Assembly (NCBI GenBank): GCA_963924565.1
Contig: OZ004612.1
Location: forward strand, 12,338,001-12,402,000
From: Ascidiella aspersa
Lineage: Eukaryota
Reading direction: 5' to 3'
DNA length: 64,000 bases
Below are positions 3,701 to 62,100 of this stretch, piece by piece. The notes beneath the pieces are model-generated. The model was given only the letters and a program-made list of their open reading frames with translations. It had not been told where the DNA came from and did no database searches. Position numbers and translations under genes: made by a program. Positions within the stretch are counted from its first letter, which is position 1; every line of letters starts with the position of its first letter.

Positions 3701-6700
3701 CAACTTATTAATTATAGAAAGGGTGATAAGGCATAGGACTTTGTGTCAGGAAATTACCCGTGTATATTATTGTTTGCGTCAATCTGGCCGCAGAGTTTCT
3801 CCAAAATAAATCCCCACAGGTGCATGAACACCTTCGCGACGTGCCCTATTAACACGGGAATGCCGCAAATAAGGCAAACAGATCTGAACACGAATCAGGT
3901 GCCATCACCTTCTGGTAGCAAGGCAGGCTACAGTTTGATTGGCAGCTTTGAAAATTGGATAACTCAAGTTTCCAGCTTGATTTCGGGTCACATTTTGGCC
4001 TGGACACATGCTCACCTTTTGACAATCGAATCTATAAGGCAATAGTTTGCCAGACAAAATGTAATGTTTCTTTATCGCCAAATATGTGCCAAAGAGTCGC
4101 GGCAAAACAAACCACTCAAGGCTGCAAGCCGCACTTTTAATCGGCCAGGTTTGAATCGAATTTAATTGTTTTGAATTCTAGCGACGCATTTTGTCTGTCA
4201 TAAACAGAAGCAAAAAAAACAAATTAAAGGTTAAATGGATATACTATCTAGTTTTTGGCCTGTGTATCAACGATTTACGAAAAGAATTCACTTGTTCGTT
4301 CTCTCTAGATGCCATTTAGGGTTTATGTCCGGTTACCTTTTTTTTCATCCATGCAACGAAAAACTCAGCAGGCCTGGTCAATATACACTGGACAAGAATA
4401 ACGCCAATAACTTTATCGTTTGAAATTGTCACAAATCCCTCTATAGTTCATTTTGGCCCTTGAAAGCGACTCAGCTCACGAAAACCGCAAATTCGACCCG
4501 GTCAACTGGCGATTAGGTGACAGCGAAATAACGCCCGGTCAGCAAGAAGCATCGGATAATTGGGAAGAAAACCGCAAATCGTCGTCGGAGCGGAGGGTCA
4601 GGCTAAGTTCGCACGAGACCTCGTCGCTTTTTAAGTTGATTGGCCACTTGGGCGTTGGACAGCCGAAAGGCGGAGAAACGCCCGTGAGTCAGACAATGAG
4701 CTCAGGCGAGGTTTTCTCGCATTATTATTATTGTAAACGTATAGGGCAGGTGTGCTCGCCCTGTCAGCTTATCTGCTAATTTCAATGGGCGGACTCAACT
4801 CGGTCGAATTTCATTTGAATACAAGGCCTTCATCGACGGCCATTTAAATATTATCCGTGAATTATTTCGGTCGGTCCAACGAACGCCACTATTTCTGGCG
4901 TTGTGAAATATTTCGGAAATAATTTGAGAGATTAAAAGCATCGAATTGATGGACAGCTAATTAGCTATCAAACCCAGTGGTCAAGGGATTAAGCACAATG
5001 TGGTGTCCGACGCTTCGCTTGAAACTATAGGTCTTGCGCGATAAAAAAATGAAAACACCCGATTTATTTAGGATTTCACAGTCGTAATTCAAATGACGTA
5101 GATAGTAAGTGGATAAAAAAAGCAAAATTGTTTTTCATAGCAACGTTTTGTTGTTGTAACTTTTGTTTTTTCACTGAATAACACGGCCTAGTGGATTATA
5201 ACATTATTATCTGTGTTTGGGTACAATATGCACTGATCTGTAATGTAGCTTACGAACTTTTTTCATCTTCAGTTCATATGGCTGAGATAAATTGAAGATA
5301 GTACAAGTGTTAATCAAGATGATGTCGATCTACTCGACCTTTTTGTTTTGCAATTCACTGTGTTATTTAAGTAACAGATTCTCGTCAACCCTTTCTCAAG
5401 TTCAAAAAAGTAATTCACTCCAAAAGGCGGAAAATAAAATTAAACAAAATGTGTTTGGGTGAAGTGCATTCCCGAGGTCAATCTAAAGATATGTGTTTAC
5501 GGATCATTACAAGTCAATTCAAGTTCAGGCAAACTTCAATAGCCCATAATCCGCTTTAAAGACATACTTGACGTTAAATGGGGGGAAGAAACGCCTCGCT
5601 CGTGTTGTGGTGTTTTCTATCCTCCTCGACAACCTGTCTGGCGTTACATAAAGAGGGTAGAGAGAAGTGCTTGATTCGGCGAATTGCGAAACCTTCAGAT
5701 ATTAGATTTATCGTGACCGCTACACATGAAAATTCTTATATAGCTTAAGTGACTCATGGTTACTGACGACATATCATCCGGCAACCCTTTGGGTTACCAT
5801 TTGACCTTTTTTTAACTGCAATTATCATCTTACATGTCAGAAATTCTACAGTATGCGTTTACAAACCAAAAGCAGCTTCTGAAATACCTCTAAGGTACAT
5901 ACATAATATATGTTACACAATCAAATGTATTTATAAACTGTTGCTACCAGGCATAGTAATACAATTAAAAAAACAGCTCCTTTGGTCATTTCAATTCTTG
6001 ACCAACGTTTCGGCAACCTATGCAATCCGCTTTTGATTTGAATCTAATGTATTGTTGTGTAACTCAGCAATGATAGTTTATTGCGTTTCAAAAATTCCCG
6101 TATAATGCAAAAAACGGGAGTGCCTATCATTTTACTTTTCGTGTAAAAAAATCATGCAAATTATGGCTCAGATGTAAAATTGTAATATATTTTCATTACT
6201 GAACATTTATTGTTTTATTAAAGGCCAACCCGCTATACAATTCCAGTTTTAAACCGGTCCGCAGTGCAAAAATGTTGGCAACCCCTGCTTTAGATAACTT
6301 GAATTGTTTCAATGTTTACTTTACAGCATTTGCAATTAAAACTGTTCAAAAAGTTATGAATAATCTTTCGAATAATCGGTTTAAAAGTATTTGCAGGATT
6401 AAAGTGTAACCCGATTTTGCTCAACAATTCTCGTCTGCACGATAAACGTTTACAAGGCGATATTCAGCGATCATTTAATAGCTTATATACAGAACGCAAC
6501 GCCGCCGCCAAGTTGTACTTAGAACATTCACAATAAATGGGTTCCATTGTGAGGCGTGCAAAAGAGGGACAGTGCATTACAGGCTGCAAAAACGGTTGAA
6601 AATACCCAGGAATTGCCGTTTTTAATGCAAAATAGCCTTAAAGACGGAACCTATTCGTAAAATTCACCTGTAATGCACGTCAAAATAAAATTGGGGCGCA

Positions 6701-9700
6701 ATGTTGTTATATTTATAGTTATTTATTTTCTGTTAACGTTCGATATATATTGAATATGATTTTGTAGTGTGTTAGAATATTAACACATGCGTGTGAAGTT
6801 ACAAGGTTGTTACTAAAGTATATAATAAACACACTGCACCCACACGCTTGTTTAAACAAAAAAACAGCATACACCACTATGTGTTTATAATTACTCATGG
6901 ACAAGTAAAAACATGATCGGAAAGTTTCCAATCACACGCATGTGACGCCTTTCCAAAGACTCACACTCACAAGACGCGTGGGCCGTGAGTGTATATGCAA
7001 ATGTACCTAAAACCTCTATTTTCAAGGATGATTACAACACAATACAAAGCTTGTGGATTACGCCAACATCATTGTTAATGTTAAAAACGATTCTCAAAAC
7101 AATTTCCGGATACGTGGGCGGTATTTGATTACACGTGACTTCAACGGGACGATTTACGGTAAAAATAAGGTTAATTGGATACCGCCTCGCCCTACAAAGT
7201 ACGATATTTTAAAGGGGGTTCAATTTAAAAAAACTGTGGATCTTATATTTAAGCTATCCTTAACTTTATTACCTATAAAAAAATAAGAGACTAATCAAAC
7301 AAATTATACGCGTTTGCTTTAATAAGTATCTCTGATTTTTTGTTGATATAAGAAAACAGAATAAAAATGGATTATAGTTCCTCCTGAGAATGAAATACTG
7401 TTTCTAAACATAGCACAGAGTCGGTGTGGAATGTTTGTTTTAAAGCCACGCAACAGCTTTAAAATACGCAAGGCGCCCGGTGGTACAAAAAGCAGTCGTG
7501 CTGTGCACGCGCCGGATTTCGAGTCCGCAATGCTACATGCATTAGCTTGTGACGCAGACTAATCAGATTGCGGCGGTGCCTGTTTATTGTCCGACTGTCT
7601 TCTCGGAGACAATGAAGAACGCTAACACGTAAATAAGCAAGCCAAAAGTAGCGCGGCCTTAGCGATCGCATGCCGAAAACTTGCAGTCGTTCGAATCTAC
7701 TGCCGCAGCAATATTTTGAGTCGTGGAAAAATACGCCCAAGTCTTGATTGAAACATTGGGGTTTGACAGTTGAACACGGAAATTGATATTTTCGCGTTAA
7801 ATCCGCGAAGCGAGACATCGAATTTCGGGCGTGTATTTACAAGGATTTCCTTGCAAATCATCTTTGACATTTCGCATCTTTCCACTCCAAAGGTTAAACG
7901 TGGAAGCGATGGATCACTTTTCCAAGCGCAGAGGATTAAGTTTATTTAAACACATTACATTGGTAATGTACCACAAACCAAACATCTACGGTTCTACACG
8001 TATATGTTTACCTATACTATAAATACTAAAATATTACATTATGGATATTTTCCACAAACTCAAAATTACCTGAAACCCAATTCAAAAGATAAAAAATGCG
8101 GTAATACGTTTTAGTTGACCTAAAAGTGTTTTCATGAGCAGTGAGCTTAATTAAATTGAAATCAGTTTAACAGTCTGTTTATCTTGTCGTAATTCAAAAT
8201 AGTTTGCGCACTGCTGAGTTTGTTGGAGCTTATAAAACTTAGAAACTCATTTTGCGCAATTAGTATTTTACCTTTCTTTAGCATCGTACAGGACTACAAG
8301 AAAATACGAGTTCGGGCGGTAAATGTGACATATTAAGGTCATTATAAATTTTCAAACATATTGCTCACGTAGCACGACTTAGGAAATTAAGGTGGTGTAA
8401 AAACCCGTCCGATACCAAAACATATTTTCTGTATGCTATTCCATATGTATTACACACACAGATTTTTTTAGTAAAACATCACTTGTGCTGGTCCGCAAAA
8501 ACGGGTAATTCTCCCTTATCTAAGAAAATCTCCGGTCTTCACAAAAGCACTAACTGTCCAGCAAAATACACAGTTGGGCGGGGTCGACTGAAGGCGCCAA
8601 GCCACAAGAATTCGACGGGAATGTCCGAGGCCGCATACATCCTGTGTGGAGCGCCGACTTTACTCGTTCGATCGGAGTGCTGTTCCTCTCGCGCGTTCAA
8701 TATAACGTGGTCATCATTGCGGTGGCTATGGCGGCAGCGACATCGTGCAATCAGCAAAGCTTAATCTCCAAAGCCGCGTCCGTCGAACAGAACGACTAAA
8801 TCTACACGATGGTGTCGCGCACGCGACGAAATGCCTTTTTGAAGATTCCGTGTACCCTTCCAAGTTCTTAACCACATTGTTGTAGGGCGAAAAACGCGGC
8901 AATATACGATAAACTGATCGACAACGACACGCTGTAGTAGCTAGCATGGTCTGTGGTTTATAAGGTTGAGTTAAACAATAAAGATTTCGTCTAGTTGGTT
9001 CTTACCCCTATATGCCGTGGTTTCTATAGCTCGTAAATTTTACCCTCCATATACCCTGGATTCTTACCTTCTTAAATCTAGGGGTTGTCAACCTCAGTGG
9101 CAGGCAAGAAAATATGTTGGGTTCTCGGGTTTGCAGCGTAACTATTTTCGACAATCATTTTGTAAAGTAACTTTCGGACATTATAGCGATCTCGTTAAAC
9201 TTTTTTTCTTTTTGTTTTTGGTCGATGTTTCAAAATGTATAGAAAGTCGTTCTACCTATTGGGCAAGTTTTCTTAACTATTAGACTTTTATATTAACATT
9301 ACTCATTGCGTGTTTGTAAAACACTAATCAGAATTAATTTACTGCTGAAGTTAAACGCTAACTTATCCATCACCTTGTACGTATTAGAAAACAAATAAAA
9401 ACCTTGTGTTTATTAAATCGTGTGGCTGAAAGTTTTAAATCCAAAAAAGCGTTTAAAATCAGGCAGAGCCGAGGCAAAGAGTAAAATATGCCTTGTATAT
9501 ATTTTGTCGTTTCATTTCCAAAAATGCAATTAAAATTTATTTTGCCGACATTTAATAATATTTGCATTGAAGTCGCAAACGGAACAACTTTCACATTCGA
9601 TTCCTAATGTATTTTTAATTACCGGAAATCCCAACATTACCAAAAAACCCAAACGTTATTGAAAAAACGAAACAAAGTTCGCCATTATAACAACAACGCG

Positions 9701-45700: not shown

Positions 45701-48700
45701 GAAAAACGATCTTCGTTTAGTTTTGCAGGTGGCGAAAGGCGTGCTTGTAATTTAGCGTACTCCCGTATATGAAACTTGGGACACTGCGCAGCTAATATTC
45801 CAATTATGATTCCACCAAAATCAATTACACACATTTCACGGTCTTTGTTTAGTTTTTCGCCTAAGGTTAACAATTGCACACCAAGGTTTCTTTTTATGAC
45901 GTCATTAAAATCACTAATTTATGACGTCATTATTCATTACCGACAGACGGAAAATAGGGGAATTCCCTAAGTTGAAATTTCGGGACACCCCCTTTTGAAA
46001 TGCGCTACGCGCCTGAAACAAGGCCATTATATAAAGATTCTTTTAAAATGAATCGCTAGTTGTATTATGTGTATTTAAGGTTCCGTTTTTGACCCAGTCC
46101 CGCCCAGATATTATCTGTTTCTCATGCGGCCCGCTGACAAAATATTTTCCATCCCTGGTCTAAACGCTACAAATGTTGGCTGACCTGTGGTAGCGTGAGG
46201 TAGCCGTTGGTAAGGGCGCCGTTAAGCATCAACTGGATCAAAACGGGGTCTCCGTTCCTGTAGCCAGTCACCTGGGTGGGCGGTTGCACAGACGAGACGC
46301 CAGGCGTGCCCGCGAACGAGAAAGTTGAAACGGTGGTCTGCGAAGCCACCGCGCTGAAAGTCGAAATGCTGGAAGGTTATGATTTTGTAACAGTAAAGGC
46401 CCGTTTACACTACAGCTGAGCTGGACGTCAAATTGCGTTAGTACTGTGCGGTAACAGACAAAGAAAAATCACTTTTACGCTTTGATGGTATGTCTAGCAA
46501 AGCGTGAAACGCTAGCCACAATAGAAATTAAATGTAAATTACGCTTTGATTAGCTTAGCGCAGCTGTAGTGTAAATGGCCCTAATTCCCGGTAAATTTCG
46601 ACCAATGCCAGGTCTTGACTGTCGGGTTACTTTTGTTCAGATGTCCTTAATTAAGAGGCGCAAAAAACTTCTTGTATAAAGAGCGATAATATTGGGTCTA
46701 TGCATCCCGCTTGCTAAGCCTGTTGTATGCTGTCTTATGCTTTATGTGCAGTTAGGTAGCTGAAAGAAGGTTTAGCATTATGTGATTTGTAAGGTTTTCG
46801 GCTGGCTAAAAAGCTAGGCAGTTTTTCTCTTTTATCTTTGTATTTGCTACTTTTGCGACAATGTTGGCTGTATTTAGTCAAAACAATTTGTTCACTTAAC
46901 GGAGACTTGTATGGCGGCAACCATGATACAGGTTCAGCATACAAAACAATCAGCTAACGAACACAGCTTCAAGTCTGTGTAACAAGACAGTCCCTACCTG
47001 AACTGGGTGTCGGAGACAGCGTACTGTCTCCCAGTCGTGTTGGCGTAAAACAGGCCGAGGTCGGGCGAGTTGAGTCGCTCTACGCATGTAAAGAGGTGCC
47101 AGTCTGGAACGTCGAAGCGCTGTGTTCCGCACAGGTTCGCGTCGTCCACCGTAAAGTTGCCGCCGAACGCGCCGCTCAGGCACTCGAACGTACTGAAGTC
47201 CTCGGGCGTGCAATCCTATGAAGTGTTTTATGCATTTATCGTTTACGGAGGGTACTTTTTACTCCAACAAATTCCGGGGTAGAGTGTCAAATGTTAAAAT
47301 ACTTAAAACAATTTTAAGTATTTGACGCTTTTACATGTATATTATATAATAGATATAACATAATCAGCAAATGCATTTTTCGTTTAAAAAATAAATTGGA
47401 TATTTGTTATAGTATGGTTTACTTGATGTCAAAAACTATCTACCCTGGAATTTAAACTATGGTCTAGTCTAGCATATTATGTGGTATCATTCTCTCGTGG
47501 ACCTTTATTAAATTGGCCGTTTTTAAGCACTTTATAAATTTGGAACATTTTTTTCCCGAGTTTTACCCCCAACTTTTGAGTACCTTTGTGAGTAATAAAC
47601 TAATTATTTTGAAAAAATAATAAAATCTTGGACAACATCAAGGTCATGGACAATAGTTTACAATGATCAACAAAATGCAAAAAACGATGACTGCTGAGTA
47701 AATCATTTTGGGAAGTTCAATATGTGATTGTTATGCATTTAAAATTACCAAAAAAAAAACTGTGTGAAAAACTGCTTGGAACATACTTTAAAACAAAGGG
47801 TCTACCATGACATAAATAAAATAAAGTTAAATGTTTTTATAAATACAACTCACAGAATCGCAACAGCAGTTGACATCGCAAGCTCCCTGAAGAAGGTCAC
47901 ATGAACATGGTGCAATATTTTGGTAGGCCGGATTGGGAAAAATGGTTGCTAAAGTTGTATGGGAGCAAAAGAAAAATAAATATAAAGCAGTAATATTTGA
48001 GTACTAAATTCAGGGCTTATAGAAGAAATAGGCAATTAGAAAATGGAGGAATATGTTTACAATAAACTGAAATTAGTACAAGCATTGAAGCAAAGCAAGG
48101 GTCCACTGTAATGCTATTTTAAAACATAAAAATTGTCATCTGGTAGCATTTGTAACAATTTTAACTAGCTCCAATACAAAATAATATTTATTAACCTTTT
48201 GCTGGAGCACTAAAATTTGCATTTACAACAATGTTGGGCTGCACATCCACGGTGATGATTGCAGCTGCATTAATATTAAGAGTGTTGCTACTGTCACAAC
48301 ACCAGACTACCAGGGTTTCTTGCAATCTTGTCAGTGGAAAAGTGCTCAACGTAACATCCATAGTGGAAAATGAAGATTCCTGACCAAAATATACAATTAA
48401 AATACCTAAACAGCACTACAAGTTTAAATACTATATTTAAATCTTGTAGTATTAATAATAATAATTTGTGAAAGCTTGTTTAAGTTAATAAGCCAATAAT
48501 GAACCCTTAGTAGTTTGTAAAACTGTGTTAGTTTGTTGACAAGTCAAACTGCTTTTGTATAAAAAAATAAAAAGTATTTTTTTTACCTTCTTTTAACTTT
48601 ACAAAATTAGACCATAAGAAGAAACAAAACACTTACAGGAACAGAAAATACCAAAGAAGGGAGCTGCCATCCACTTGTAGTATTTTGGTTTCCTAAAATA

Positions 48701-50550
48701 AGAAAAAATTACCAAACAAGTTTCATGTAGTTCGCCTTTAAATAGTAAATGTTAATTTTAAAGAATTAAACACCTTTTTAAACAAACATCCCACTAGAGC
48801 TAATTTAATTCACACAAAAGCTAATTTAATTTACGCAATTAGTATTCTACTTTAAACATGTAATAAATTTTAACTTACCACTGAAACAAAGATTTGAATT
48901 GGTGGTTTCAGCTGTAAAAAAATAACCCTGTTTACTAAACGCATATTTTAAAACTAGAAAATATCCTTTAAAAATAAATTTAAACTGCTAACTGCAAGTG
49001 TTAACATGAATTAAATTTGTTGCAATTAAAGTGTTAAGCTTTGTATGTGTATTCACAACAGAATCTGGCCCTCCAACAGAACACATAATGCCGACGATAA
49101 AAGTTCTAAAATTTATATATAAAAGCTTGAGAAGCGCACCGCTCCGAACAAAAATCAGTCAGCAAGGTCTAAAACTTTATTACAAATATGCATTTCGCCA
49201 TATAAATGGCATCATCAGTTTGTCTGTACAAATAAATAGTAAAAAATTAAAATGTAAATCTAAAATAAATTAATAAAATACATCCAAGATGAACAAAGAC
49301 AAAGACAGTCTGCGTATAAACCCCAACAACTACTATAAAAACAAAATTACAGTGTTATTAAGATATTTAATTTGTCAACCTTGTGTGACTACTTGTTGAA
49401 TAGAACAGTTGAATGATGCTGTTGTGTTTTGGTCCGGTATAAGCAGTAGTCGGAAAGTGTCTGTGTGCACCGACAGACTCGAAGGATATAGGGTGACACC
49501 TAAGAATAAAATAATTTTTTTTAAGACAAAGTGTGTCAGGATAAACGTTGTTCAAGGAATTTTTAAAGCAATAATTTTACTGTGACTAAATCCAACCTAA
49601 CCAGTAAATCAGTGTTATTTGTTTCACTCTAGAGCAGCGGTTCCAAACGGGGTCCGCAAAGAGGATTAGTCTTTAAGTTTTTCAACATTAGGCTTTAGCA
49701 AATGCTTCTAAATATTAGTCTATGTTTTAATCATTATCTGTCATCATTATTAGTCTTTATTTATGCTTTATTATTCGAAAATATAGCGTGTTTTATGTTG
49801 AACTACGTGCTATAGGCGAAAGTGTTTGCATTAGTTAAAAAGTTTTTACATGAGAAAGAATCGTGACTGGACTAGTGAACTACAAGAAACATGGGTCAAC
49901 TAACCCTTGAATTTTTATAGGGCCCAAAATATCAAAATAGTTGCAAAGGGCCCAATCGGTAAAATTTTTAGAAAAGTTTGGGAACCGCTGCTCTAGCATC
50001 CTGTTATATGTAAGGTACACAATGACTTTAAAATTGCTTAAGTGCACGTATAGATCTGCCCCAGTTTGAAAACGTTGTACTTTGCATGTGCTTTAAACAT
50101 GTACACTTGTAATAAATAACTGCTAAAATTTGCAAAGCTTCAATGTATTACTACCAACAACTCTACGCATTGCAGATATTTAACGCATAATTTGCTTTAC
50201 TTAAATATTATGGCTGACAAACATAACAGCAATTTCTACAATATGAATCCCATGCATGCAATTTTCATAAAATATACATTTCTATACATGAAATATATCA
50301 CAGAATTTGTACAATATCACGAATTGAAATATGGCTCACCTAATGGTTAGGTTAAACAGTTGAGATTAATGATAAAAAATATACTCTGTTTAAATCAACC
50401 AACCTTGTGCGCAGATCATATTCATTTGACAAGTAAACAAACTGCATAGCAGGAGCAATCCTGGAACACGTAGAGCTAATTCCATTTTTTTAGTCATTGA
50501 TATGCTTAAACTTTTGGATGGTTTGGCTAAAGCATTTGACCTGTGGACAT
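33788..50550 (-). CDS. TCTN2: Tectonic-2-like ciliary transition-zone protein (3'-partial)
   Basis: Thirteen phase-consistent exons on the minus strand: 50550-50541, 50460-50404, 49499-49380, 48911-48879, 48692-48637, 48379-48196, 47948-47854, 47215-46998, 46368-46185, 44261-44073, 43705-43609, 34627-34451, 33976-33788. Signal peptide [22 protein letters not shown]. Tectonic motifs [21 protein letters not shown] and [16 protein letters not shown]2-type segments [39 protein letters not shown] and LKIWQP. The last exon ends on a phase-1 GTAAGT donor. Confidence 0.9.
35340..35681 (+). promoter_or_regulatory. Putative promoter and non-coding first exon of the nested gene
   Basis: GTCACGTGA E-box at ~35345 and a strong donor AAG|GTAAGG at 35681/35682. 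The next acceptor, TTTTTAG|G at 36561/36562, is 10 nt before the ATG. Confidence 0.45.
36099..36487. mobile_element. Degenerate hAT MITE
   Basis: CAGGGGGAGTCGAACTTTT ... AAAAGGTTAAGAACCACTG termini. The TSD is not conserved. Confidence 0.55.
36572..43206 (+). CDS. Nested 609-aa Pro/Ser-rich protein with a C-terminal domain resembling the non-LTR retrotransposon ORF2 linker
   Basis: Seven phase-consistent coding exons: 36572-36844, 37618-37761, 38354-38733, 40303-40578, 41071-41219, 42128-42561, 43033-43206 (1830 nt, ends TAA), with GC-rich codons against AT-rich introns. Contains DSGYQS and [35 protein letters not shown]|[16 protein letters not shown]. Confidence 0.82.
39224..39451. mobile_element. 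hAT MITE
   Basis: CAGTGTTTCTTAAAC ... GTTTAAGAAGCATTA termini, internal GGGTGAA repeats, and a perfect 8-bp TSD CTTTAGGC (39216-39223 and 39452-39459). Confidence 0.85.
44698..46015. mobile_element. Non-autonomous hAT element (middle of the nest)
   Basis: TIRs CAGGGCGTAGCG / CGCTACGCGCCTG and a perfect 8-bp TSD AAACAAGG (44690-44697 and 46016-46023). Confidence 0.85.
45291..45585. mobile_element. hAT MITE (innermost of the nest)
   Basis: TIRs CAGTGATTCCCAAACT / AGTTTGGAAAACACTG, GTGTGCCGCG subterminal repeats, TSD CTCTGAGA / CTCTAAGA. Confidence 0.88.
46398..46581. mobile_element. PIF/Harbinger-like MITE
   Basis: ~25-bp TIRs GGCCCGTTTACACTACAGCTGAGCT / AGCGCAGCTGTAGTGTAAATGGCCC flanked by TAA-like trinucleotides. 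Confidence 0.7.
49635..49990. mobile_element. hAT MITE
   Basis: CAGCGGTTCCAAAC ... GTTTGGGAACCGCTG termini. Flanks CTCTAGAG and CTCTAGCA. Confidence 0.8.
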
Positions 50551-51509
50551 AGCTCAGTTAACACCCTTTTCACTTAAACCTAATATGTCGTTCGTCGAAC
50601 AAACATAGGGCAGTCTTCCGATTTTTAAATACTGCTGAACACCTGAAGCTTCTAATTTCTAACTTTGTGATGACTTTGTGTTGGCTAACTCCAGTTCTGC
50701 TGAACAAGCCAGTTTTCTGAAATGCTTAACTGAAATTGAATTCACATAGCTTGGGTTTGTTTCTACGCTACGGTTGAACTATTTACAAATCCCGCAGTTG
50801 AAACCGCCACTACCAGCCGTGACATCAAAACTAGTAAAAAAAATTGAAGGGGTTGTAATCGTATCTGAATTGAAAAACTGTAGGCAGATTTTAATATTGT
50901 ACTGTACCTATGTTAAATTTTGATGAATCGTATTAAAACATAACATAGGCCTGGTATTTTTATTTAGAACTTATTTAACCAATGATACAAAATGATAAAA
51001 CGGACATAAATCATTTAAAAAGAATCGTTATAAACATATTTTTGTAATTTCAGAGTTTACCAATTAATGAAAATTAATTTATTTGTTCTGTACTAATCGG
51101 TTTATAACTTTTTTAGCATTTCTGAAGATAGTTGGCATGCAACCGCGTTCCGTTCGTCGACCTTTGATTTTATTAAAGAGATGTGTTTAAACCTCTTTAT
51201 AATAACTAAGCCAATAAATAATTGAATATATAGCTAAACTAAAGATGTAAACCTAATGAGTATCATTTGTGAAACTTAGTCCATGTCAACTTGTAAAGTG
51301 ACGTCACAATATAGGCTGAACAATCAACCTTGATAAAGTAGGAACGTTTTTCAACATTTTCGTTTCTGAACTTACAGTTAGCATTGCGCCAGCCTGACAA
51401 ATAAAATGTATTTTTGCGTTCGAATGGGATCGAATTTCTTGATCTTGCTGTCAGCGGGAACTTTTGATTGGCAAAGAACTCTCGATATTGTAGCTGAGAA
51501 GCTTACAGA
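50551..51509. promoter_or_regulatory. Probable bidirectional promoter region between TCTN2 and the repeat-protein gene
   Basis: Divergent ATGs lie 960 bp apart. There is an X-box-like GTTGGCATGCAAC at 51131-51143 and a palindromic GTGACGTCAC at 51298-51307. Confidence 0.45.
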
Positions 51510-54297
51510 ATGGAGAAGGTCTCCGTTTGCGGCCCATGGTATTTTCAATATCATAATTATGATGTTAGTTTTGTTCGTGTTAACACAAGTGTGTGCAAAA
51601 CGTGGATTTACTTTCATAAAAAGGTAAAGTTTCAAAGTATATATAATAGTATAATTATATCAACTTAAACTAACTCATTTTTTTTCATTTTAATTAACGA
51701 CTTTAATTCGTGCGTTAAAATATGTAATAAATATACGTTGTAGGCCTAAAGTAAACGTTGTAGCGAGAAACAAAATATTATTTAGTTCTGCATATCGACT
51801 TAAATTGAAGCTGCGAAACACTCCAGCAGTTGCCGCGCAGTTTCACACAAGTTTGGAAGGACAACGCCGGGTTTGTTTTTTGCAAATATCGAATAAAAAA
51901 TGTACTGGCAGCAAACCTTACGATGTTTTTTTGTAGGCATCTACTAATTTGGATGATAAGGACACGGTTACATATCTTTCAAAATGTTTATACAATAAAA
52001 ATGCTTCTAAGGACGTGCAGTTTTTCAATGGTACAGGTAAATCATAAATTATAAATAGATAAGTAGCGAGGCTTGACGAAACCATGCGTTTGCTTTAAAA
52101 TTAAAGGACTTATAGAGCCATTTTAACGAATTCTAAAATACGTAACGAAATTAATATTTATTGTTCAATCCTTTAGCTTAATTAATAGTTTTGCTGTTGG
52201 TCTACTAATAGCCTAATACAGTAACTAATTTCGATTTAATAATATTGGGTAGCACTGCGATATGGAATCATTACTATTTTTCAGTCAATTTTCACTTTTA
52301 TTTTTTAAGAAATGCCGGAAGAATATAAACAGGAAAATCCAATTGACGAGCCACTTCCTTGCATGTTGTTTTCCTCATATTTAACGGCTGTTAAACCACA
52401 ACAATATAAGGAAACCACACGACATGTCTCTGTCCAACCCTCCCTTACTATGGTATGCCATGTGGAAACGACTCCTTCTAGAGTCCCAGTTAACGAGACT
52501 ATTCCCTTCAAGTTGCTGAAACCGATTCCTTCAAGAGTCCCAGTTATGGAAGCTACTCCTTCCAAGTTGCTCAAACCGACTCCTTCTAGAGTCCCAGTCA
52601 AGGAGGCTGCTCCCTCAAGGTTGCTAAAACCGACTCCTTCTAAAGTCCCAGTTATGGAAGCTACTCCTTCCAAGTTGCTCAAACCGACTCCTTCTAGAGT
52701 CCCAGTCAAGGATGCTGCTCCCTCAAAGTTGCTGAAACCGACTCCTTCTAGAGTCCCAGTTATGGAAGCTACTCCTTCCAAGTTGCTGAAACCGACTCCT
52801 TCTGGAGTCCCAGTTAAGGAGGCTACTCCTTCCAAGTTGCTGAAACCGACTCCTTCTAGAGTCCCAGTTAAGGAGGCTGCTCCCTCCAAGTTGCTGAAAC
52901 CGACTCCTTCAAGAGTCCCAGTTAAGGAACCTACTCCCTCCAAGTTTATGATGAAACCGACTCCTTCTAGAGTCCCAGTTAAGGAGGCTACTCCTTCCAA
53001 GTTGCTGAAACCGATTCCTTCAAGAGTCCCAGTTATGGAAGCTACTCCTTTCAAGTTGCTCAAACCGACTTCTTCTAGAATCCCAGTTAAGGAGGCTGCT
53101 CCTTCCAAGTTGCTGAAACCGACTCCTTCTAGAGTCCCAGTTATGGAAGCTACTCCTTCCAAGTTGCTGAAACCGACTCCTTCTGGAGTCCCAGTTAAGG
53201 AGGCTACTCCTTCCAAGTTGCTGAAACCGACTCCTTCTAGAGTCCCAGTTAAGGAGGCTGCTCCCTCCAAGTTGCTGAAACCGACTCCTTCAAGAGTCCC
53301 AGTTAAGGAACCTACTCCCTCCAAGTTTATGATGAAACCGACTCCTTCTAGAGTCCCAGTTAAGGAGGCTACTCCTTCCAAGTTGCTGAAACCGACTCCT
53401 TCTAGAGTCCCAGTCAAGGACGCTACTACTTCCAAGTTGCTGAAACCGATTCCTTCAAGAGTCCCAGTTATGGAAGCTACTCCTTTCAAGTTGCTCAAAC
53501 CGACTTCTTCTAGAATCCCAGTTAAGGAGGCTGCTCCTTCCAAGTTGCTGAAACCGACTCCTTCTAGAGTCCCAGGGAAGGACGCTACTCCTTCCAAGTT
53601 GCTGAAACCGATTCCTTCAAGAGTCCCAGTTATGGAAGCTACTCCTTTCAAGTTGCTCAAACCGACTTCTTCTAGAATCCCAGTTAAGGAGGCTACTCCT
53701 TCCAAGTTGCTGAAACCGACTCCTTCTAGAGTCCCAGTTATGGAAGCTACTCCCTCCAAGTTGATGATGAAACCGATTCCTTCTAGAGTCCCAGTTAAGA
53801 AGGCTGCTTCCTCCAAGTTGCTGAAACCGACTCCTTCTAGAGTCCCAGGAAAGGAAGCTACTCCTTTCAAGTTGCTCAAACCGACTTCTTCTAGAGTCCC
53901 AGTTATGGAAGCTACTCCTTCCGAGTTGCGAAAACCGACTCCTTCTAGAGTCCCAGTCAAGGATGCTGCCCCCTCAAAGTTGCTGAAACCGACTCCTTCT
54001 AGAGTCCCAGTTAAGAAAGCTACTCCCTCCAAGTTGATGATGAAACCGATTCCTTCTAGAGTCCCAGTCAAGGATGCTGCCCCCTCAAAGTTGCTGAAAC
54101 CGACTCCTTCTAGAGTCCCAGTCAAGGACGCTACTACTTCCAAGTTGCTGAAACCGATTCCTTCAAGAGTCCCAGTTATGGAAGCTACTCCTTCCAAGTT
54201 GTTGAAACCGACTGCTTTTGGAGTCCCAATCCCGGAGGCCTACTATTCCAAAACGGCAAATGTCTGCTTCCAAGTTGCTCAAGCTGACTATTGTTAG
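51510..54297 (+). CDS. Predicted 733-aa basic Lys/Pro/Ser/Thr-rich repeat protein (18-aa repeats, about 38 T-P-x-K/R motifs)
   Basis: Three-exon model 51510-51623 (AAG|GTAAAG), 51937-52036 (TTGTAG| ... CAG|GTAAAT), 52310-54297 (TTTTTTAAG|) joins in frame with ORF 52312-54297. An in-frame TGA lies just upstream of the ATG. No homology recognised. Confidence 0.6.
52468..54215 (+). repeat. 54-bp minisatellite array A (~32 units; 57-bp variants)
   Basis: Consensus AAGTTGCTGAAACCGACTCCTTCTAGAGTCCCAGTTAAGGAGGCTACTCCTTCC. All length variants seen are +3 nt. A 381-bp, 7-unit higher-order duplication is visible (52921 vs 53302). Confidence 0.97.
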
Positions 54298-55292
54298 CGT
54301 TTCAGCCCAAGATGGGCACTCCACGCAAAAACTGAAACAATTGCTTCCAGAGTCATAATTAAAATGTTTCCTGGTTTGAAATAGCGAGTCAAACCAGTGA
54401 CAATTGTGGCCTTTCGGGCTCTTGTTGATATTATTGATTGCTTTGTGTGTTTACCGTTTATTCGCAAATATATCGCTTGAATATTATATGTGGTTGTGTT
54501 TTTTTAACCTCATGGCTAGAAGTATTAGGCTGTTTATTTTTTTTATATATCCAAGTTTTAATTTATTTACTTCTCTTATGAAAACTGTTAAAATCAAAGA
54601 ATTTGTTTATTACTAGCTTGCCTTATAGCTAGCATAATACAATGTTCAAACGAGCACGATTTTTATTAGCAAAACTGTCAAACACCGCTAACTTGCAGTT
54701 TAAATTGAACCGCGATCAGAAAAAGGTTGCTGAAACCTGGCCTAGAATATTGAATTCATGTTATCCAGAAGTTACCACAAGACTTATATATTTTAGTAAC
54801 TTGCGAAATACCTAGCTAGTTGTTTGCAGGGTCATTCCTATATATTTCAATCCAATTCAATATATGTTCGACACATCAATATTTACCTCCAGCATCCGTT
54901 TTATCGGTCCACGACATTGTGTTATCTAACTGAGGAATCTTATTAGCATAGTGACTTGAATTCGTCAACTCAAGTTCGAATTAACTTCAATTATAGTTTT
55001 AAGAAGGCGTGCAAATTCTCGGGTAAAACTTAAAAGTGACATAAACGCAGATTATATATATATATATATATATATTAAATAGGCGTACAACACACGGCAT
55101 TTTATAATGCAAAACCAAACGCGTTGCTGTTTTTATCAAGTAACTAATTTTAACGGCGAAGTGCCAAATTTGGTTAAAATAACCTATTGTTAAAAATACA
55201 CCTAATGAGCAACACCAATTCAAATTTCACTGTAATCGCTAGTTAGCTTTTATTCGGCGACAAACTCCCGAAAAAGACTCAATTTCATTTCG

Positions 55293-56517
55293 CTAACACC
55301 GGATCATGACCTTTATCGCCCTCTGGTGTGGATCGGAAGCAGTTACGAAAGCGTCGTTTGCAGATTGCAAGTCAAACCGATGAGTGATGAGACGTTCCAC
55401 GTCGATGGCTCCCGAGGCGACCAACTCTATTGCTTCTGGATACCTTTACAACCATAGTTGGTTTGTTTGGTTATGGCAGCGATTGTAACTTTAGATGCGG
55501 TTAGGCAAATTGTTTTTTCGAATATTATACTTAAATTCACGATATTTTATGTGACGCCACATATTTTGAGCATAAACTGATTTTTCTAGGCAGTTTTGTT
55601 GAAAGACTTGCGTTTAAGGCAACGTTAACTTTTAAAAATCTTGCAAGCACTTTTAAAATGACAAACAAGTATTGATATCAATTGAAAACAAAGTCATATA
55701 TCATTTGCGGTTGAAAAAAGCAAAACTGCTTTTGGCGAGTCCGGTGTTGTTTTCCTGAACTAAACGTATAATAATATATTTAGTCTTCTGACAAAAGCGA
55801 TAAACAAATATATAAAATACGTCGTCTGGCAAAAGAGTGACGTACAAATATAAAATAGGAATTATATTACGTGTTGGCGTAACGAAATATCCCCTTGATG
55901 TCGATTTCAAAGGTTCCGGCCCGAACCATGGCGACAGGAACCTCGGCGGATCCTCTTCCGACCAGCAGAACGCAACCTCCAGGCCTACACACCTGTACAT
56001 TTGGAAAGTCAAGGGCTGTTTTACTAAGGAACGCTTAAGAGATATAAACCGCATTTGTGGCGAATTCATGTTTTGCGCACAGATTCTCCACTCTTTAGTT
56101 GAAAATTATTGTTACTAGATTACTGAATTAACAAAACCTCGTGAGAAGTTTGATCTTATAAACCTTTTTTTCTAAAAAGCAGGTTTGTAGAATGTTAGCC
56201 AATTGAGAATACACATTTTATCCGTTAACAAAGACAGCTTTTTTTTCGAAGATAAATTCCCTGAGAGACTCGTCTAAACAAATAACGTAGCTCATTTCCA
56301 ACCAAAATGGCACACTTTTATATTAACCGAATAAGAAATAAAGTAAATACCAAGAAATGCGTATAATCACTAGAAAAAATCTATTTGTGAGAAGCAAGTA
56401 AACAATATTTTTTTGCGTATATCATTCGCAATTTAAAACTGTACGTTGTACGTATCTATGACATTATGACATAGAAATCAGCATTTTCGCTTACATAAAC
56501 TCCAGTTTTTAAGCTCA
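55293..56517 (-). pseudogene. Duplicated orphan 3' end of the sorbitol dehydrogenase-like gene
   Basis: Copies of the last two exons (55992-55871, 55443-55293) plus only 23 nt (56517-56495) of the preceding exon, cut by minisatellite array B. The final acceptor is AAG here and CAG in the intact copy. Confidence 0.8.
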
Positions 56518-57560
56518 GATTCCTTCTAGAGTCCCAGTTAAGAAGGCTGCTTCCTCCAAGTTGCTGAAACCGACTCCTTCTAGAGTCCCAGGAAAGGAAG
56601 CTACTCCTTTCAAGTTGCTCAAACCGACTTCTTCTAGATTCCCAGTTAAGGACGCTACTCCTTCCAAGTTGCTGAAACCGATTCCTTCAAGAGTCCCAGT
56701 TATGGAAGCTACTCCTTTCAAGTTGCTCAAACCGACTTCTTCTAGAATCCCAGTTAAGGAGGCTACTCCTTCCAAGTTGCTGAAACCGACTCCTTCTAGA
56801 GTCCCAGTTAAGGAAGCTACTCCCTCCAAGTTGATGATGAAACCGATTCCTTCTAGAGTCCCAGTTAAGAAGGCTGCTTCCTCCAAGTTGCTGAAACCGA
56901 CTCCTTCTAGAGTCCCAGGAAAGGAAGCTACTCCTTTCAAGTTGCTCAAACCGACTTCTTCTAGAATCCCAGTTAAGGAGGCTACTCCTTCCAAGTTGCT
57001 GAAACCGACTCCTTCTAGAGTCCCAGTTAAGGAAGCTACTCCCTCCAAGTTGGTGATGAAACCGATTCCTTCAAGAGTCCCAGTTAAGAAGGCTGCTTCC
57101 TCCAAGTTGCTGAAACCGACTCCTTCTAGAGTCCCAGGAAAGGAAGCTACTCCTTTCAAGTTGCTCAAACCGACTTCTTCTAGAATCCCAGTTAAGAAGG
57201 CTGCTTCCTCCAAGTTGCTGAAACCGACTCCTTCTAGAGTCCCAGGAAAGGAAGCTACTCCTTTCAAGTTGCTCAAACCGACTTCTTCTAGAGTCCCAGT
57301 TATGGAAGCTACTCCTTCCGAGTTGCGAAAACCGACTCCTTCTAGAGTCCCAGTCAAGGATGCTGCCCCCTCAAAGTTGCTGAAACCGACTCCTTCTAGA
57401 GTCCCAGTTAAGAAAGCTACTCCCTCCAAGTTGATGATGAAACCGATTCCTTCTAGAGTCCCAGTCAAGGATGCTGCCCCCTCAAAGTTGCTGAAACCGA
57501 CTCCTTCTAGAGTCCCAGGAAAGGAAGCTACTCCTTCCAAGTTGTTGAAACCGACAGCTT
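56518..57560 (+). repeat. 54-bp minisatellite array B (~19 units), 5'-truncated copy of the repeat-protein last exon
   Basis: Same unit as array A with a different unit order and the same unique C-terminal tail (AFGVPIPEAYYSKTANVCFQVAQADYC*, stop at 57640). Confidence 0.95.
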
Positions 57561-58606
57561 TTGGAGTCCCAATCCCGGAGGCCTACTATTCCAAAACGGC
57601 AAATGTCTGCTTCCAAGTTGCTCAAGCTGACTATTGTTAGCGTTTCAGCCCAAGATGGGCACTCCACGCAAAAACTGAAACAATTGCTTCCAGAGTCATA
57701 ATTAAAATGTTTCCTGGTTTGAAATAGCGAGTCAAACCAGTGACAATTGTGGCCTTTCGGGCTCTTGTTAATATTATTGATTGCTTTGTGTGTTTACCGT
57801 TTATTCGCAAATATATCGCTTGAATATTATATGTGGTTGTGTTTTTTTAACCTCATGGCTAGAAGTATTAGGCTGTTTATTTTTTTTATATATCCAAGTT
57901 TTAATTTATTTACTTCTCTTATGAAAACTGTTAAAATCAAAGAATTTGTTTATTACTAGCTTGCCTTATAGCTAGCATAATACAATGTTCAAACGAGCAC
58001 GATTTTTATTAGCAAAACTGTCAAACACCGCTAACTTGCAGTTTAAATTGAACCGCGAACAGAAAAAGGTTGCTGAAACCTGGCCTAGAATATTGAATTC
58101 ATGTTATCCAGAAGTTACCACAAGACTTATGTATTTTAGTAACTTGCGAAATACCTAGCTAGTTGTTTGCAGGGTCATTCCTATATATTTCAATCCAATT
58201 CAATATATGTTCGACACTTCAATATTTACATCCAGCATCCGTTTTATCGGTCCACGACATTGTGTTATCTAACTGAGGAATCTTATTAGCAGTTCGAATT
58301 AACTTCAAATATATTTTTAAGAAGGCGTGCAAATTCTCGGGTAAAACTTAAAAGTGACATAAACGCAGATTATATATATATATATATATTAAATAGGCGT
58401 ACAACACACGGCATTTTATAATGCAAAACCAAACGCGTTGCTGTTTTTATCAAGTAACTAATTTTAACGGCAAAGTGCCAAATTTGGTTAAAATAACCTA
58501 TTGTTAAAAAGACACCTAATGAGCAACACCAATTCAAATTTCACTGTAATCGCTAGTTAGCTTTTATTCGGCGCCAAACTCCCGAAAAAGACTCAATTTC
58601 ATTTCG

Positions 58607-60014
58607 CTAACACCGGATCATGACCTTTATCGCCCTCTGGTGTGGATCGGAAGCAGTTACAAAAGCGTCGTTTGCAGATTGCAAGTCAAACCGATGAGTG
58701 ATGAGACGTTCCACGTCGATGGCTCCCGAGGCGACCAACTCTATTGCTTCTGGATACCTGTACAACCATAGTCGGTTTGTTTGGTTATGGCAGCGATTGT
58801 AACTTTAGATGCGGTTAGGCAAATTGTTTTTTCGAATATTATACTTAAATTCACGATATTTCATGTGACGCCACATATTTTGAGCATAAACTGATTTTTC
58901 TAGGCAGTTTTGTTGAAAGACTTGCGTTTAAGGCAACGTTAACTTTTAAAAATCTTGCAAGCACTTTTAAAATGACAAACAAGTATTGATATCAATTGAA
59001 AACAAAGTCATATATCATTTGCGGTTGAAAAAAGCAAAACTGCTTTTGGCGAGTCCGGTGTTGTTTTCCTGAACTAAACGTATAATAATATATTTAGTCT
59101 TCTGACAAAAGCGATAAACAAATATATAAAATACGTCGTCTGGCAAAAGAGTGACGTACAAATATAAAATAGGAATTATATTACGTGTTGGCGTAACGAA
59201 ATATCCCCTTGATGTCGATTTCAAAGGTTCCGGCCCGAACCATGGCGACAGGAACCTCGGCGGATCCTCTTCCGACCAGCAGAACGCAACCTCCAGGCCT
59301 ACACACCTGTACATATAGAAAGTGGAGGGCTGTTTTACTAAGGAATGCTTAAGAGATATAAACCGCATTTGTGGCGAATTCATGTTTTGCGCACAGATTC
59401 TCCACTCTTTAGTTTAAAATTATTGTTACTAGATTACCGAATTAACAAAACCTCGTGAGAAGTTTGATCTTATAAACCTTTTTGTCAAAAAAAAGCAGGT
59501 TTGTAGAATGTTAGCCAATTGTGAATACACATTTTATCCGTTAACAAAGACAGCTTTTTTTTTCGAAGATAAATTCCCTGAGAGACTCGACTAAACAAAA
59601 AACGTAGCTCATTTCCAACCAACATGGCACACTTTTATATTAACCGAATAAGAAATAAAGTAAATACCAAGATTAATGTGGGATGGTAATGCGTATAATC
59701 ACTAGAAAAAATCTATTTGTGAGAGGCAAGTAAACAATATTTTTTTGCGTATATCATTCGCAATTTAAAACTGTACGTTGTACGTATCTATGACATTATG
59801 ACATAAAAATCAGCATTTTCGCTTACATAAACTCCAGTTTTTAAGCTCATATCGGCTCCGCTGCACTCTAGCGCCGCATGGCAGCCGTCGTCACCGGCGA
59901 TTTGGCGCAGTTTCTCGGCCAGCTGTTCCGGGTCCTGGTCGGAACGTTCGGCCAGATGCGTGAGATCGGCGGCGCCGAATTCCCGCGCGATTTTCAACCG
60001 GTGTGGGTCGATGT
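58607..60014 (-). CDS. SORD: Sorbitol dehydrogenase-like (Zn-dependent MDR) gene, last three exons; 5' exons not found in the window
   Basis: Exons 60014-59827, 59306-59185 and 58757-58607 are in phase: [15 protein letters not shown]...[16 protein letters not shown]|[14 protein letters not shown]...[13 protein letters not shown]|[25 protein letters not shown]...AIKVMIRC*. This matches the SORD C-terminal motifs ECTGA, EVDIKGVFRY and LVTHRF. Confidence 0.88.
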
Positions 60015-62100
60015 CTGCAACGAATTGATAGGAAACTGTAAAACGCGATGGTTGCGAAAATTTGCTGAAATAGAAGGGCGTTTCTTTATGGAATCTAAAA
60101 CCATTGGCAGTAGGTTTTTGCTTGTCGATCACTGTTCCGAATCGATGCATTCATTCGAATTAAGGAACTGACGATGTCAGTATAGGCGAAATATATTCCT
60201 TTTAACAAATTGTCTGATCCTGGTTTTACTCAGATTTTTAAATTTTGAGCATTATTTGTTTGTTTTGTTGGAATAGGTTGTTGACCTAGAGCTAAATTTG
60301 TTGCGACATTTTTTTAATAAAGCTTATATACATGTGAACTCCATACTGTTATACACAGATGCTTTGTATATTTTTAACTAGAAGTGCAGATTTGAGCCAG
60401 AATTGCGCGACACTTGCTGGCATTCCAATTGGATAAGGCCCAACATGTCAACTTTAGAATCAGGACAGGGTAATTTTTTTATAAGAAAAGGTTTTTGTTT
60501 TCACTTTTTCGGCAAATTTCTACGTTAAGCAGCGGAAACAAATTTGCAATTTCTCTTTCACAAACAGGGTGGAACACCGATTATCAGGACCAAAGGAAAC
60601 AAAAAAAACTCGAAAGTTCACCGTACTGTCTTTCAAGGGACATGGAAACAGGCTGCTTTAGTCTTAAACAGCATAAACGTGTGCTTATGAAGCGGAGATA
60701 ACGCAACCATGGGATACTACTGAGTGTACGAAAAAAGGTCCATTGTTTTAAGTTGTGTTGACTTTTGCCAAGGTTGTTCGACAATACGTATAATGTTCTT
60801 CAGTAAAATGACGCTGAAATGCGACCCAGTTCTTTGTTCAATATTTTGACATAAATTGCGTCAAGAAATAAACAAAGCGTTTTGTCCGGCGCGCGTGCTT
60901 GCTGTCACTTATAACGTATTCGAACACAAATAGTACGTAATTATGTGTTCGTATTGCGTGTTCGACAACGCAGCGTCGTTCTTCATAGCAAGCAAACTAA
61001 GTCAAAACAATTGTTTCAATATGTGAAAGTTTTCTTGAGTTGTAATTGATATCGCAATATATTGTAAAGATTTAGGGATAAGCGAGTGACGCGAAGCTTT
61101 GTAGTCATGAAGTATAATTTAAAAAAAAAAGTTTATATTTAAACACTCAAAAACTCTTAAAGTTAGATGAAGTTGGATAGTGCAAGACATGAAGGTGCCC
61201 GACATTAAGAGTAATCTTCTATTGTTTAATACCTGTGTGTTCGCACTGTGTTAACCGTCAAAATCGCATGACATAAGAGAAATTAAAATAGGAAATATTT
61301 AAACATTCATACACACGTGTAAAAACCAGTTCAGAAATTAGTGGACACAGTCAATTGTTAAGGCAAAATGTTTTTCTTTATGTGGTGTGATCGCTTTGTA
61401 TTTGTTTTTCTCCTTGTGTTTGTAATGCATTGACCTGTGTACTGTGAAGGTCGTCAGAACGTTGGAGAACAAAAAAAATTACCAGCGATGATATGTTGTT
61501 TAACATTACTGTTATAATTGATGAAAAATGTAATTATTGATAAAAAAAAAGCAACTGTACCATGAACGGTCCTTGACTTGTGTAGCTATCTATTGCCTAG
61601 CTCATCCGTTAGAGTAAAATTCTGGTATGACTCAGGCAATAAGTTTAAGTTTCATTTATTTATTAATTTTTTCTTCCACCACAAGCTGTTATTTTAAGGT
61701 GGACTTACTAAAAAAAGTCCCGGGTTTTATGTTTTCCTACGAGTCGGGCGCAAAACTGCTACAGTACTTAAACTGCTTTTTATTGCTTTTTTATTTGCTA
61801 GCCGTGCATTACGACGTCACAATATTATTTTAAAACTTCCGGAAGTCACGAACACAACCATGTGCCCGCTATTTTGGTACTACTGGGACGCTTTTCATCC
61901 TATAACCAGAAGTGCTAACACTTAGCTTCGGTTTTAGCTTGATTTTTCAGTCGCACAAAACACACATACGTTTATACCTCGAAACGTTCGATGCCGAATA
62001 ACGTGCTGTAACGCAGTAAACATCACGCCAGTTTTGGGGCATTGTGACGTAATACGAAAGGCTATAGTCGTAAACAACAACAACGATTTAAAACGTATAG

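Follow-up and report, generated by a model that had tools for sequence, protein, structure and literature searches.

STIM1 is a single-pass ER membrane protein with Ca2+-sensing and coiled-coil domains, wherein an EF-SAM domain and coiled coils mark the family, and Climp63 carries a luminal coiled coil as its family domain. Ki-67, which is built from an FHA domain and Ki-67 repeats, and the S/T-P-x-K tails of histone H1, whose globular domain is a winged helix, are basic, repeat-built, and rich in S/T-P-x-K/R, the CDK consensus. In STIM1, a basic Ser/Pro-rich region is described as holding a T-R-I-P EB1 motif flanked by ERK/CDK1 sites, the phosphorylation of which releases EB1 (PMC3914909). 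Climp63/CKAP4 is presented as an ER-microtubule tether that binds through its N-terminal 28 residues and one key serine and is released by CDK1 in mitosis (10.1101/2025.09.01.673496). For p180/RRBP1, the source describes an N-terminal anchor, then 54 decapeptide repeats that form a ribosome-binding domain of pI 11, and lastly an acidic coiled coil at the C-terminus that holds the microtubule-binding site (PMC12491259).

The gene described here lies in a 64,000-nucleotide stretch of Ascidiella aspersa DNA (the window) and encodes a protein that may work in the manner of STIM1, Climp63, or p180. As in STIM1, a predicted membrane protein with a basic tail carries an EB-type motif flanked by CDK-type sites. 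However, STIM1 has one canonical motif, whereas about 32 motifs, mostly S-R-V-P, are present here in a repeat protein that has neither a Pfam domain nor sequence similarity to STIM1. The likeness to p180 consists of a predicted N-terminal anchor and long basic tandem repeats, both of which are found here; the differences are an 18-aa Pro-rich unit, a short basic C-terminus lacking a coiled coil, and the absence of homology or a Pfam match. With Climp63 the protein would share the mode of action, a membrane-microtubule tether switched off by CDK1, but Climp63 has no tandem repeats and its layout is the opposite one. With Ki-67 and H1 it shares basic repeats and many CDK consensus sites, but it has a predicted anchor and its CDK sites are not kept in paralogs. 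A Pfam search of exon 1 and the last exon with E values up to 0.1 matched none of the STIM1 or Climp63 family domains and no FHA, Ki-67 repeat, or linker-histone domain. Judged by its sequence, the protein falls outside the STIM, Climp63, p180, Ki-67, and H1 families.

The gene is spliced from four exons, has a 796-residue product, and includes the following features.

51406..51623, plus strand: coding part of exon 1 in the corrected frame, from ATG 51406 (alternative ATG 51424).
51538..51597, plus strand: predicted transmembrane helix, residues 45–64, from hydropathy and flanking charge.
51786..51870, plus strand: exon 2, 85 nt, with GT..AG joints of 3 and 3 reads and a homologous exon in a paralog.
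51937..52036, plus strand: exon 3, with joints of 3 and 8 reads; exons 2 and 3 together encode 61 aa.
52310..54297, plus strand: coding part of the last exon, 662 codons, with reads at both exon ends.
52465..54228, plus strand: coding minisatellite, 54-nt unit, 32.5 copies, 86% matches, by Tandem Repeats Finder.
54263..54358, plus strand: leftover degenerate repeat units in a shifted frame, the off-frame reading of which forms the present C-terminal tail.
54358..54363, plus strand: ATTAAA poly(A)-type signal; plus-strand read depth stops at ~54375.

RNA reads (46 on the 5′ region, from ~6% of one RNA run) establish plus as the transcribed strand by their strand and by GT..AG ends. A plus-strand spliced transcript, on whose existence the original prediction had staked its case, is thus seen. 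That prediction also held a three-exon model with junctions 51623/51937 and 52036/52310. The second is carried by 8 reads, but the first is absent among joints with at least 3 reads, and a minor 51623/51937 form may exist below this threshold. Instead, reads support the junctions 51623/51786 and 51870/51937, with 3 reads each, and the three-exon model was wrong in having missed the 85-nt exon between these joints. Because the reads use this exon, exon 1 is read in another frame. In the RNA-supported mRNA, ATG 51510 meets a stop after 43 codons, and therefore the ~120-aa N-terminus predicted earlier was an off-frame reading; ATG 51406 opens 796 codons. The spliced 5′ frame is open over 134 codons, an outcome with a frequency of 1e-4 in 20,000 base shuffles, and the corrected frame of exon 1 is 44% identical to exon 1 of a paralog (C2, below), with the first Met kept. 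We infer ATG 51406 as the start codon, since read depth begins only in bin 51366–51434. The RNA depth of the gene (6–12) is similar to that of its divergent neighbor (6–8). A 644-codon antisense frame over the array was rejected as a shadow of the sense repeat, because the unit is stop-free in that frame and C2, even where its antisense strand is most open, contains 18 stops; no antisense reads were seen at either array end in the same RNA run.

The corrected frame brings in a predicted membrane anchor. The 19-residue hydropathy peak is 2.53 in the RNA-supported protein versus 0.54 in the earlier model, and the predicted helix is kept in C2 (2.53 and 2.67, respectively), both with a basic C-terminal flank. 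A structure model of exon 1 places a helix at residues 45–67 with low confidence (mean pLDDT 59). Basic and acidic residues number 7 and 0 in the 20 positions after the helix versus 3 and 2 in the 15 before it. Under the positive-inside rule, the basic flank of a membrane helix faces the cytosol, and the repeat tail is therefore predicted to be cytosolic. Three N-x-S/T sequons lie in the stalk after the helix. The protein had been viewed as an orphan, basic, and repeat-built, a description that holds (no outside homologs, no Pfam families, pI 11.2, a 54-nt array, and RNA reads). The idea that it is a soluble chromatin polymer of the SPKK type loses ground, because a transmembrane helix is predicted in the RNA-supported protein and the frame of this helix is kept in a paralog.

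The array itself was correctly recognized as a coding minisatellite with an 18-aa unit. Its ~32 units of 54 or 57 nt (18 or 19 codons) are arranged in higher-order blocks, and the repeat region has a pI of 11.2 and a net charge of +85. Ser+Thr make up 19% of the last exon and Pro 20%, a composition from which the protein is predicted to be disordered. Length variants had been said to preserve the reading frame. This is the case for the internal 54/57-nt variants, but one length change at the 3′ end shifts the frame; this single frameshift cut off about two degenerate units, and the final ~14 residues of the protein are the off-frame reading of further degenerate units that reach position 54358.

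A search of the same genome (308.6 Mb in 75 contigs) identified two paralogs, a lower bound, and additional own-genome searches, which likewise give lower bounds, found none beyond these. C2 (L028 2863–6840) shares the four-exon structure and ends in an exon of 785 codons. Its 5′ exons (~390 nt) carry two lesions, an AT in place of GT as the exon-1 donor and an in-frame stop in exon 3, and the 2355-nt last exon carries none. This open tail behind damaged 5′ exons suggests that the tail can be useful without this anchor. Translation of C2 may begin at an internal ATG and yield a soluble product, or C2 may splice to an AG acceptor that the new stop codon created. C7 (L041 4653–2256, minus strand) has an open last exon of 523 codons; among its four 5′ parts, only exon 3 aligned above shuffles, and it is recognizable but contains stops. 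The membrane-helix coding of exon 1 is lost in C7. A first exon of three codons could be joined in frame with its last exon to give a 516-aa protein, which is predicted to begin with a Cys-flanked hydrophobic and basic stretch whose frame is shifted relative to the ancestral reading, possibly a re-invented membrane anchor.

Degenerate 18-aa units, 27 in C2 and 16 in C7, tile the two paralog tails. Their repeat frames hold no stops, versus 9.7 and 7.5 expected from neutral simulation (0 of 2000 runs each), which argues that both tails were under coding selection. All three copies are basic (K+R 16–20%), Ser/Thr-rich (19–23%), and carry repeated K/R-V/I-P. C2 and C7 share a unit consensus that differs from that of the studied gene, with T-S-P-K/R-V-P versus T-P-S-R-V-P and A-S-S-S versus A-T-P-S. 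LC8 is a cytosolic or nuclear protein. Its usual anchor, TQT (PMC12057147), occurs three times ahead of the repeats in each paralog (shuffle means 0.23 in C2 and 0.13 in C7, reached by 1 of 1000 shuffles each), and none is present in the studied gene. C2 also has 12 N-x-S/T sequons versus 5.2 in shuffles (reached by 1–2 of 1000). Constraint on exons 1–3 appears weak, with dN/dS versus C2 of 0.67. Of nine coding differences in other individuals, seven are non-synonymous and none breaks the frame.

The earlier 733-aa model translates with exactly the 38 T-P-x-K/R sites claimed for it, versus a shuffle mean of 4.6 (4.5 when compared alongside the paralogs), and 0 of 1000 shuffles reached this number, although the 38 sites are copies of one unit rather than independent events. 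Two sites per unit had been proposed. Indeed, both slots exist, but slot A is intact in only 18 and slot B in only 19 of 31 full units (37 of 62 slots in total), and units with broken slots were re-amplified within the array. C2 and C7 hold 4 and 1 full sites, which is chance level (shuffle means 2.6 and 2.2), and the sites are thus not conserved among homologs. Unit-to-unit pN/pS is 0.58 by pairwise comparison and 1.26 by distinct variants, values that give no clear sign of selection among array units. Given these same figures (4 and 1 sites in the paralogs, 25 of 62 slots broken, and the two pN/pS values), the proposal that site number is tuned by repeat expansion is not supported.

Because the paralogs are at chance level and the array lacks clear selection, the CDK sites and S-R-V/I-P most likely arose recently, in the one unit that was amplified. 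By parsimony, with two paralogs set against one copy and no outgroup, both motifs would be derived in the studied copy, and a swap of S-P to P-S would have made one CDK site and S-R-V-P simultaneously. A phospho-switch would be at most a recent putative property of this single copy.

Searches beyond this genome returned no relatives. Among proteins, none of the 7989 scored candidates for the last exon, none of the 43 longer proteins compared with exon 1, and none of the 7988 candidates for a three-paralog profile was real. The first 176 residues gave 20 matches among 1.84 billion representatives, and all 15 of those checked were unrelated low-complexity repeats. The queries were separate parts of the protein, with which a distant relative of the spliced full-length N-terminus could be missed. 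Atlas matches scored 0.76–0.77 and serve as leads only. A metagenome scan of 139 stretches gave one locus, which was rejected because the match spans 19 residues and lies within an ORF of bacterial type that is unrelated. No Pfam family was matched by exon 1 and the last exon at E values up to 0.1. Among open-access papers, none was found that combines ascidian, transmembrane, SxIP, and microtubule, and none relevant on tandem repeats with testis or with the motif string. By these comparisons, the locus is a real, lineage-restricted, and fast-evolving gene, wherein the CDK-site count is a recent amplification of putative function.

The surroundings of the gene include the following features.

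46170..50600, minus strand: divergent neighbor, a DUF1619_N gene, presumably Tectonic-like (PF25752, E 8e-10, exon 47830–48003; minus-strand reads; low boundary approximate).
51299..51306, plus strand: TGACGTCA element, which we take to be CRE-like, ~100 nt upstream of the ATG and at the same place in both paralogs, with one mismatch in C2.
55242..60015, minus strand: 3′ exons of a convergent zinc alcohol dehydrogenase-like neighbor, which we assume to be sorbitol dehydrogenase-like, duplicated with the flank (PF00107 below the curated cut-off; CT..AC joint, 6 reads).
56518..59849, plus strand: tandem duplicate of the array 3′ part and 2.3 kb of flank, 96.7% identical.

Within the duplicate, Tandem Repeats Finder locates a second array at 56521–57571. 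Twelve of its 18 full units are identical to units of the first array, in a different order, and all 18 are in frame. No 5′ exons were found for it, and it was rejected as an extra exon or a gene of its own; reads at its start are only array-type loose ends that are not assignable to it. In DNA run X1, which is near-identical to the window and is possibly its source, flank depth is 147–161 versus 93 for unique DNA, and a junction piece is present at depth 40, so the duplication looks heterozygous. This piece, at depth 40 versus 93, also makes a pure assembly artifact unlikely, although with 30 letters on each side it falls one below the bridging mark. In DNA run X2, one contig runs into post-duplication sequence at single-copy depth, and the duplication looks absent. 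These observations are indirect evidence that the array varies between haplotypes, and array alleles probably differ in length. Within 55242–59849, the polymorphic duplication has doubled the last exons of the convergent zinc-dehydrogenase gene as well. Three RNA alleles were checked in the flank: the one at 56474 agrees with the distal copy, and the other two agree with neither copy.

Joined to a membrane anchor, the long polycationic tail points to a tether whose partner is a polyanion, and microtubules are favored because S-R-V/I-P is present in every unit, C2 has four S-K/R-I-P motifs, and both paralogs have TQT motifs. We tentatively propose, as a possibility short of an expectation, that the basic tail ties an internal membrane such as the ER to microtubules and is released by mitotic phosphorylation. 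The predicted anchor would lie near the protein start, with the tail of ~32 repeats in the cytosol, and the basic K-P-T/S and K/R-V-P repeats of the family would bind the acidic microtubule surface electrostatically. The studied copy would then have amplified one mutant unit, wherein S-R-V/I-P is bracketed by two T-P-x-K/R sites. S-R-V/I-P would be an EB1-type docking motif, weak by itself but usable through avidity, and binding would be turned off as phosphorylation of as many as 38 sites offset most of the +85 charge. A stronger version, in which homogenization of one mutant minisatellite unit on a lineage-specific membrane protein recently produced ~32 CDK-bracketed EB1-docking motifs, a de novo, highly multivalent coupler of an organelle to plus ends, with an all-or-none mitotic off switch and a strength that depends on allele length, is highly doubtful.

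The EB-like motif bears on this proposal in both directions. S-x-V/I-P occurs in all 31 full units, wherein Ser8 and Pro11 are invariant and position 10 holds either Val or Ile, and its flanks are basic (pI 11.2, net +85), as is typical of SxIP motifs. SRVP was recovered among weak EB1 binders in an optimal context, with R/K at x and V at +1 preferred (PMC3967968), and phosphorylation beside an EB motif is described as a general means of releasing EB1 (PMC4365484). An EB1 gene is present in the same genome. C2 has four S-K/R-I-P motifs (shuffle mean 0.1) and no S-x-V-P. The counter-evidence is that the motif is mostly non-canonical, acidic at +3, and not family-wide. Of 32 EB-like motifs, 29 have Val rather than the defining Ile/Leu and only 3 are exact S-R-I-P; the generic S/T-x-I/L-P count is 3 versus 2.8 in shuffles. 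Glu or Asp occupies +3 in 29 of 31 units, a position where human EB1 aptamers prefer Lys (PMC3967968). L-x-x-P-T-P, which resembles the LxxPTPh motif that names a +TIP class (PMC10162426), occurs 18 times and in no case with a hydrophobic seventh residue. Complex prediction with two copies of the EB1 C-terminal exon and two S-R-V-P units scored 0.26, with the mark at 0.34, and weighs neither for nor against the proposal. Tandem SxIP constructs designed for avidity are reported to give intermediate comet numbers and poorer tracking than a dimeric construct (PMC5800807), and a preprint states in its title that ERK/CDK phosphorylation of STIM1 is dispensable for ER partitioning (10.1101/2021.07.06.451280).

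The polyanion could instead be nucleic acid, such that a membrane-anchored polycation either attaches to ribosomes or mRNA on the ER or binds chromatin on the inner nuclear membrane, and is released by mitotic phosphorylation. This reading, which retains most of the earlier chromatin idea and adds the anchor, draws on the p180-like layout with pI 11 repeats that are described as binding ribosomes (PMC12491259), matched here by a repeat pI of 11.2 and 38 T-P-x-K/R sites. However, neither sequence nor Pfam comparison connects the protein with p180, Ki-67, or histone H1, the acidic coiled-coil C-terminal domain is missing, and the TQT and S-K/R-I-P motifs of the paralogs point to the cytoskeleton, leaving it credible but unlikely.

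We consider it rather unlikely that the product is a structural protein of gametes, a sperm or ciliary spacer anchored in the plasma or mitochondrial membrane and reaching to the axoneme or accessory fibers, in which T-P-x-K/R sites are not cell-cycle CDK targets. Its orphan status and high non-synonymous variation would suit such a role, as would the head-to-head arrangement with the Tectonic-like gene, the 5′ ends being ~0.8 kb apart. The CRE-like element kept in all three paralogs is a weak pointer, because TGACGTCA occurs 11 times in the 64-kb window versus 0.8 expected from base composition and is probably a piece of a dispersed repeat or a genome-favored motif. The top Atlas match of the C2 tail, a fibrous-sheath CABYR-binding protein cluster, is a lead only, its score of 0.76 lying within the shuffled-protein range. 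Between the two genes, at 51131–51143, lies the palindrome GTTGGCATGCAAC, which we take to resemble the RFX X-box consensus, one base short.

A weakly constrained gene whose basic spacer was homogenized by unequal crossing-over, with 38 CDK sites and SRVP arising by chance and having no regulatory role, is quite unlikely. The unit pN/pS (0.58–1.26), the 40% of CDK slots that are broken, with broken units re-amplified, the lack of both motifs in the paralog consensus, the tolerated 3′-end frameshift, and the 5′ exons broken or rewired in both paralogs are all consistent with it. Yet Ser8 and Pro11 are invariant and position 10 is Val/Ile (p ~0.05, a post hoc hand estimate), the paralog tails were selected against stops, and the second array keeps the frame in each of its 18 full units.

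Coding VNTRs are typical of mucins. A type II membrane, mucin-like protein with a luminal or extracellular, O-glycosylated Pro/Ser/Thr-rich tail and irrelevant CDK/EB look-alikes would fit this trait, the last-exon composition (19% Ser+Thr, 20% Pro), the 3 stalk sequons, and the sequon excess in C2, but it is very unlikely given the basic residues after the helix in both the studied gene and C2, a net charge of +85, TQT motifs in both paralogs, stalk sequons that do not align between paralogs, and a C2 excess that may come from Lys/Thr-to-Asn changes where Ser/Thr already stood two places on.

If the membrane-microtubule tether is real, it would be a natural test of whether avidity rescues a weak, non-canonical EB motif and of whether multisite phosphorylation sets a threshold, with C2 and C7 as ancestral-type controls that lack the motifs, and a docking-plus-kinase module would have been born from few point changes and repeat expansion. 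If it is not, what stands is an orphan family that evolves fast and now has a correct annotation, along with a warning that the number of motifs in a coding minisatellite mirrors one amplified unit.

Two further candidates from the genome search were rejected as paralogs. One (C1, L029) is an unrelated acidic repeat, a coding minisatellite at 5114–6478 and 8805–9485 that is rich in Glu, Val, Ala, and Pro, has a 454-codon frame, and lies beside other Glu-rich exons. The other (C3, L042) is an unrelated 27-nt repeat, a satellite of several kb at 3541–8296, both strands of which contain long open frames. L031 342–2709, which lies ~3.4 kb downstream of C2, holds a frameshifted pol region, presumably Ty3/gypsy-like from its motifs, and positions 65–565 of the window hold a C-terminal fragment of a hAT transposase (PF05699, below cut-off).
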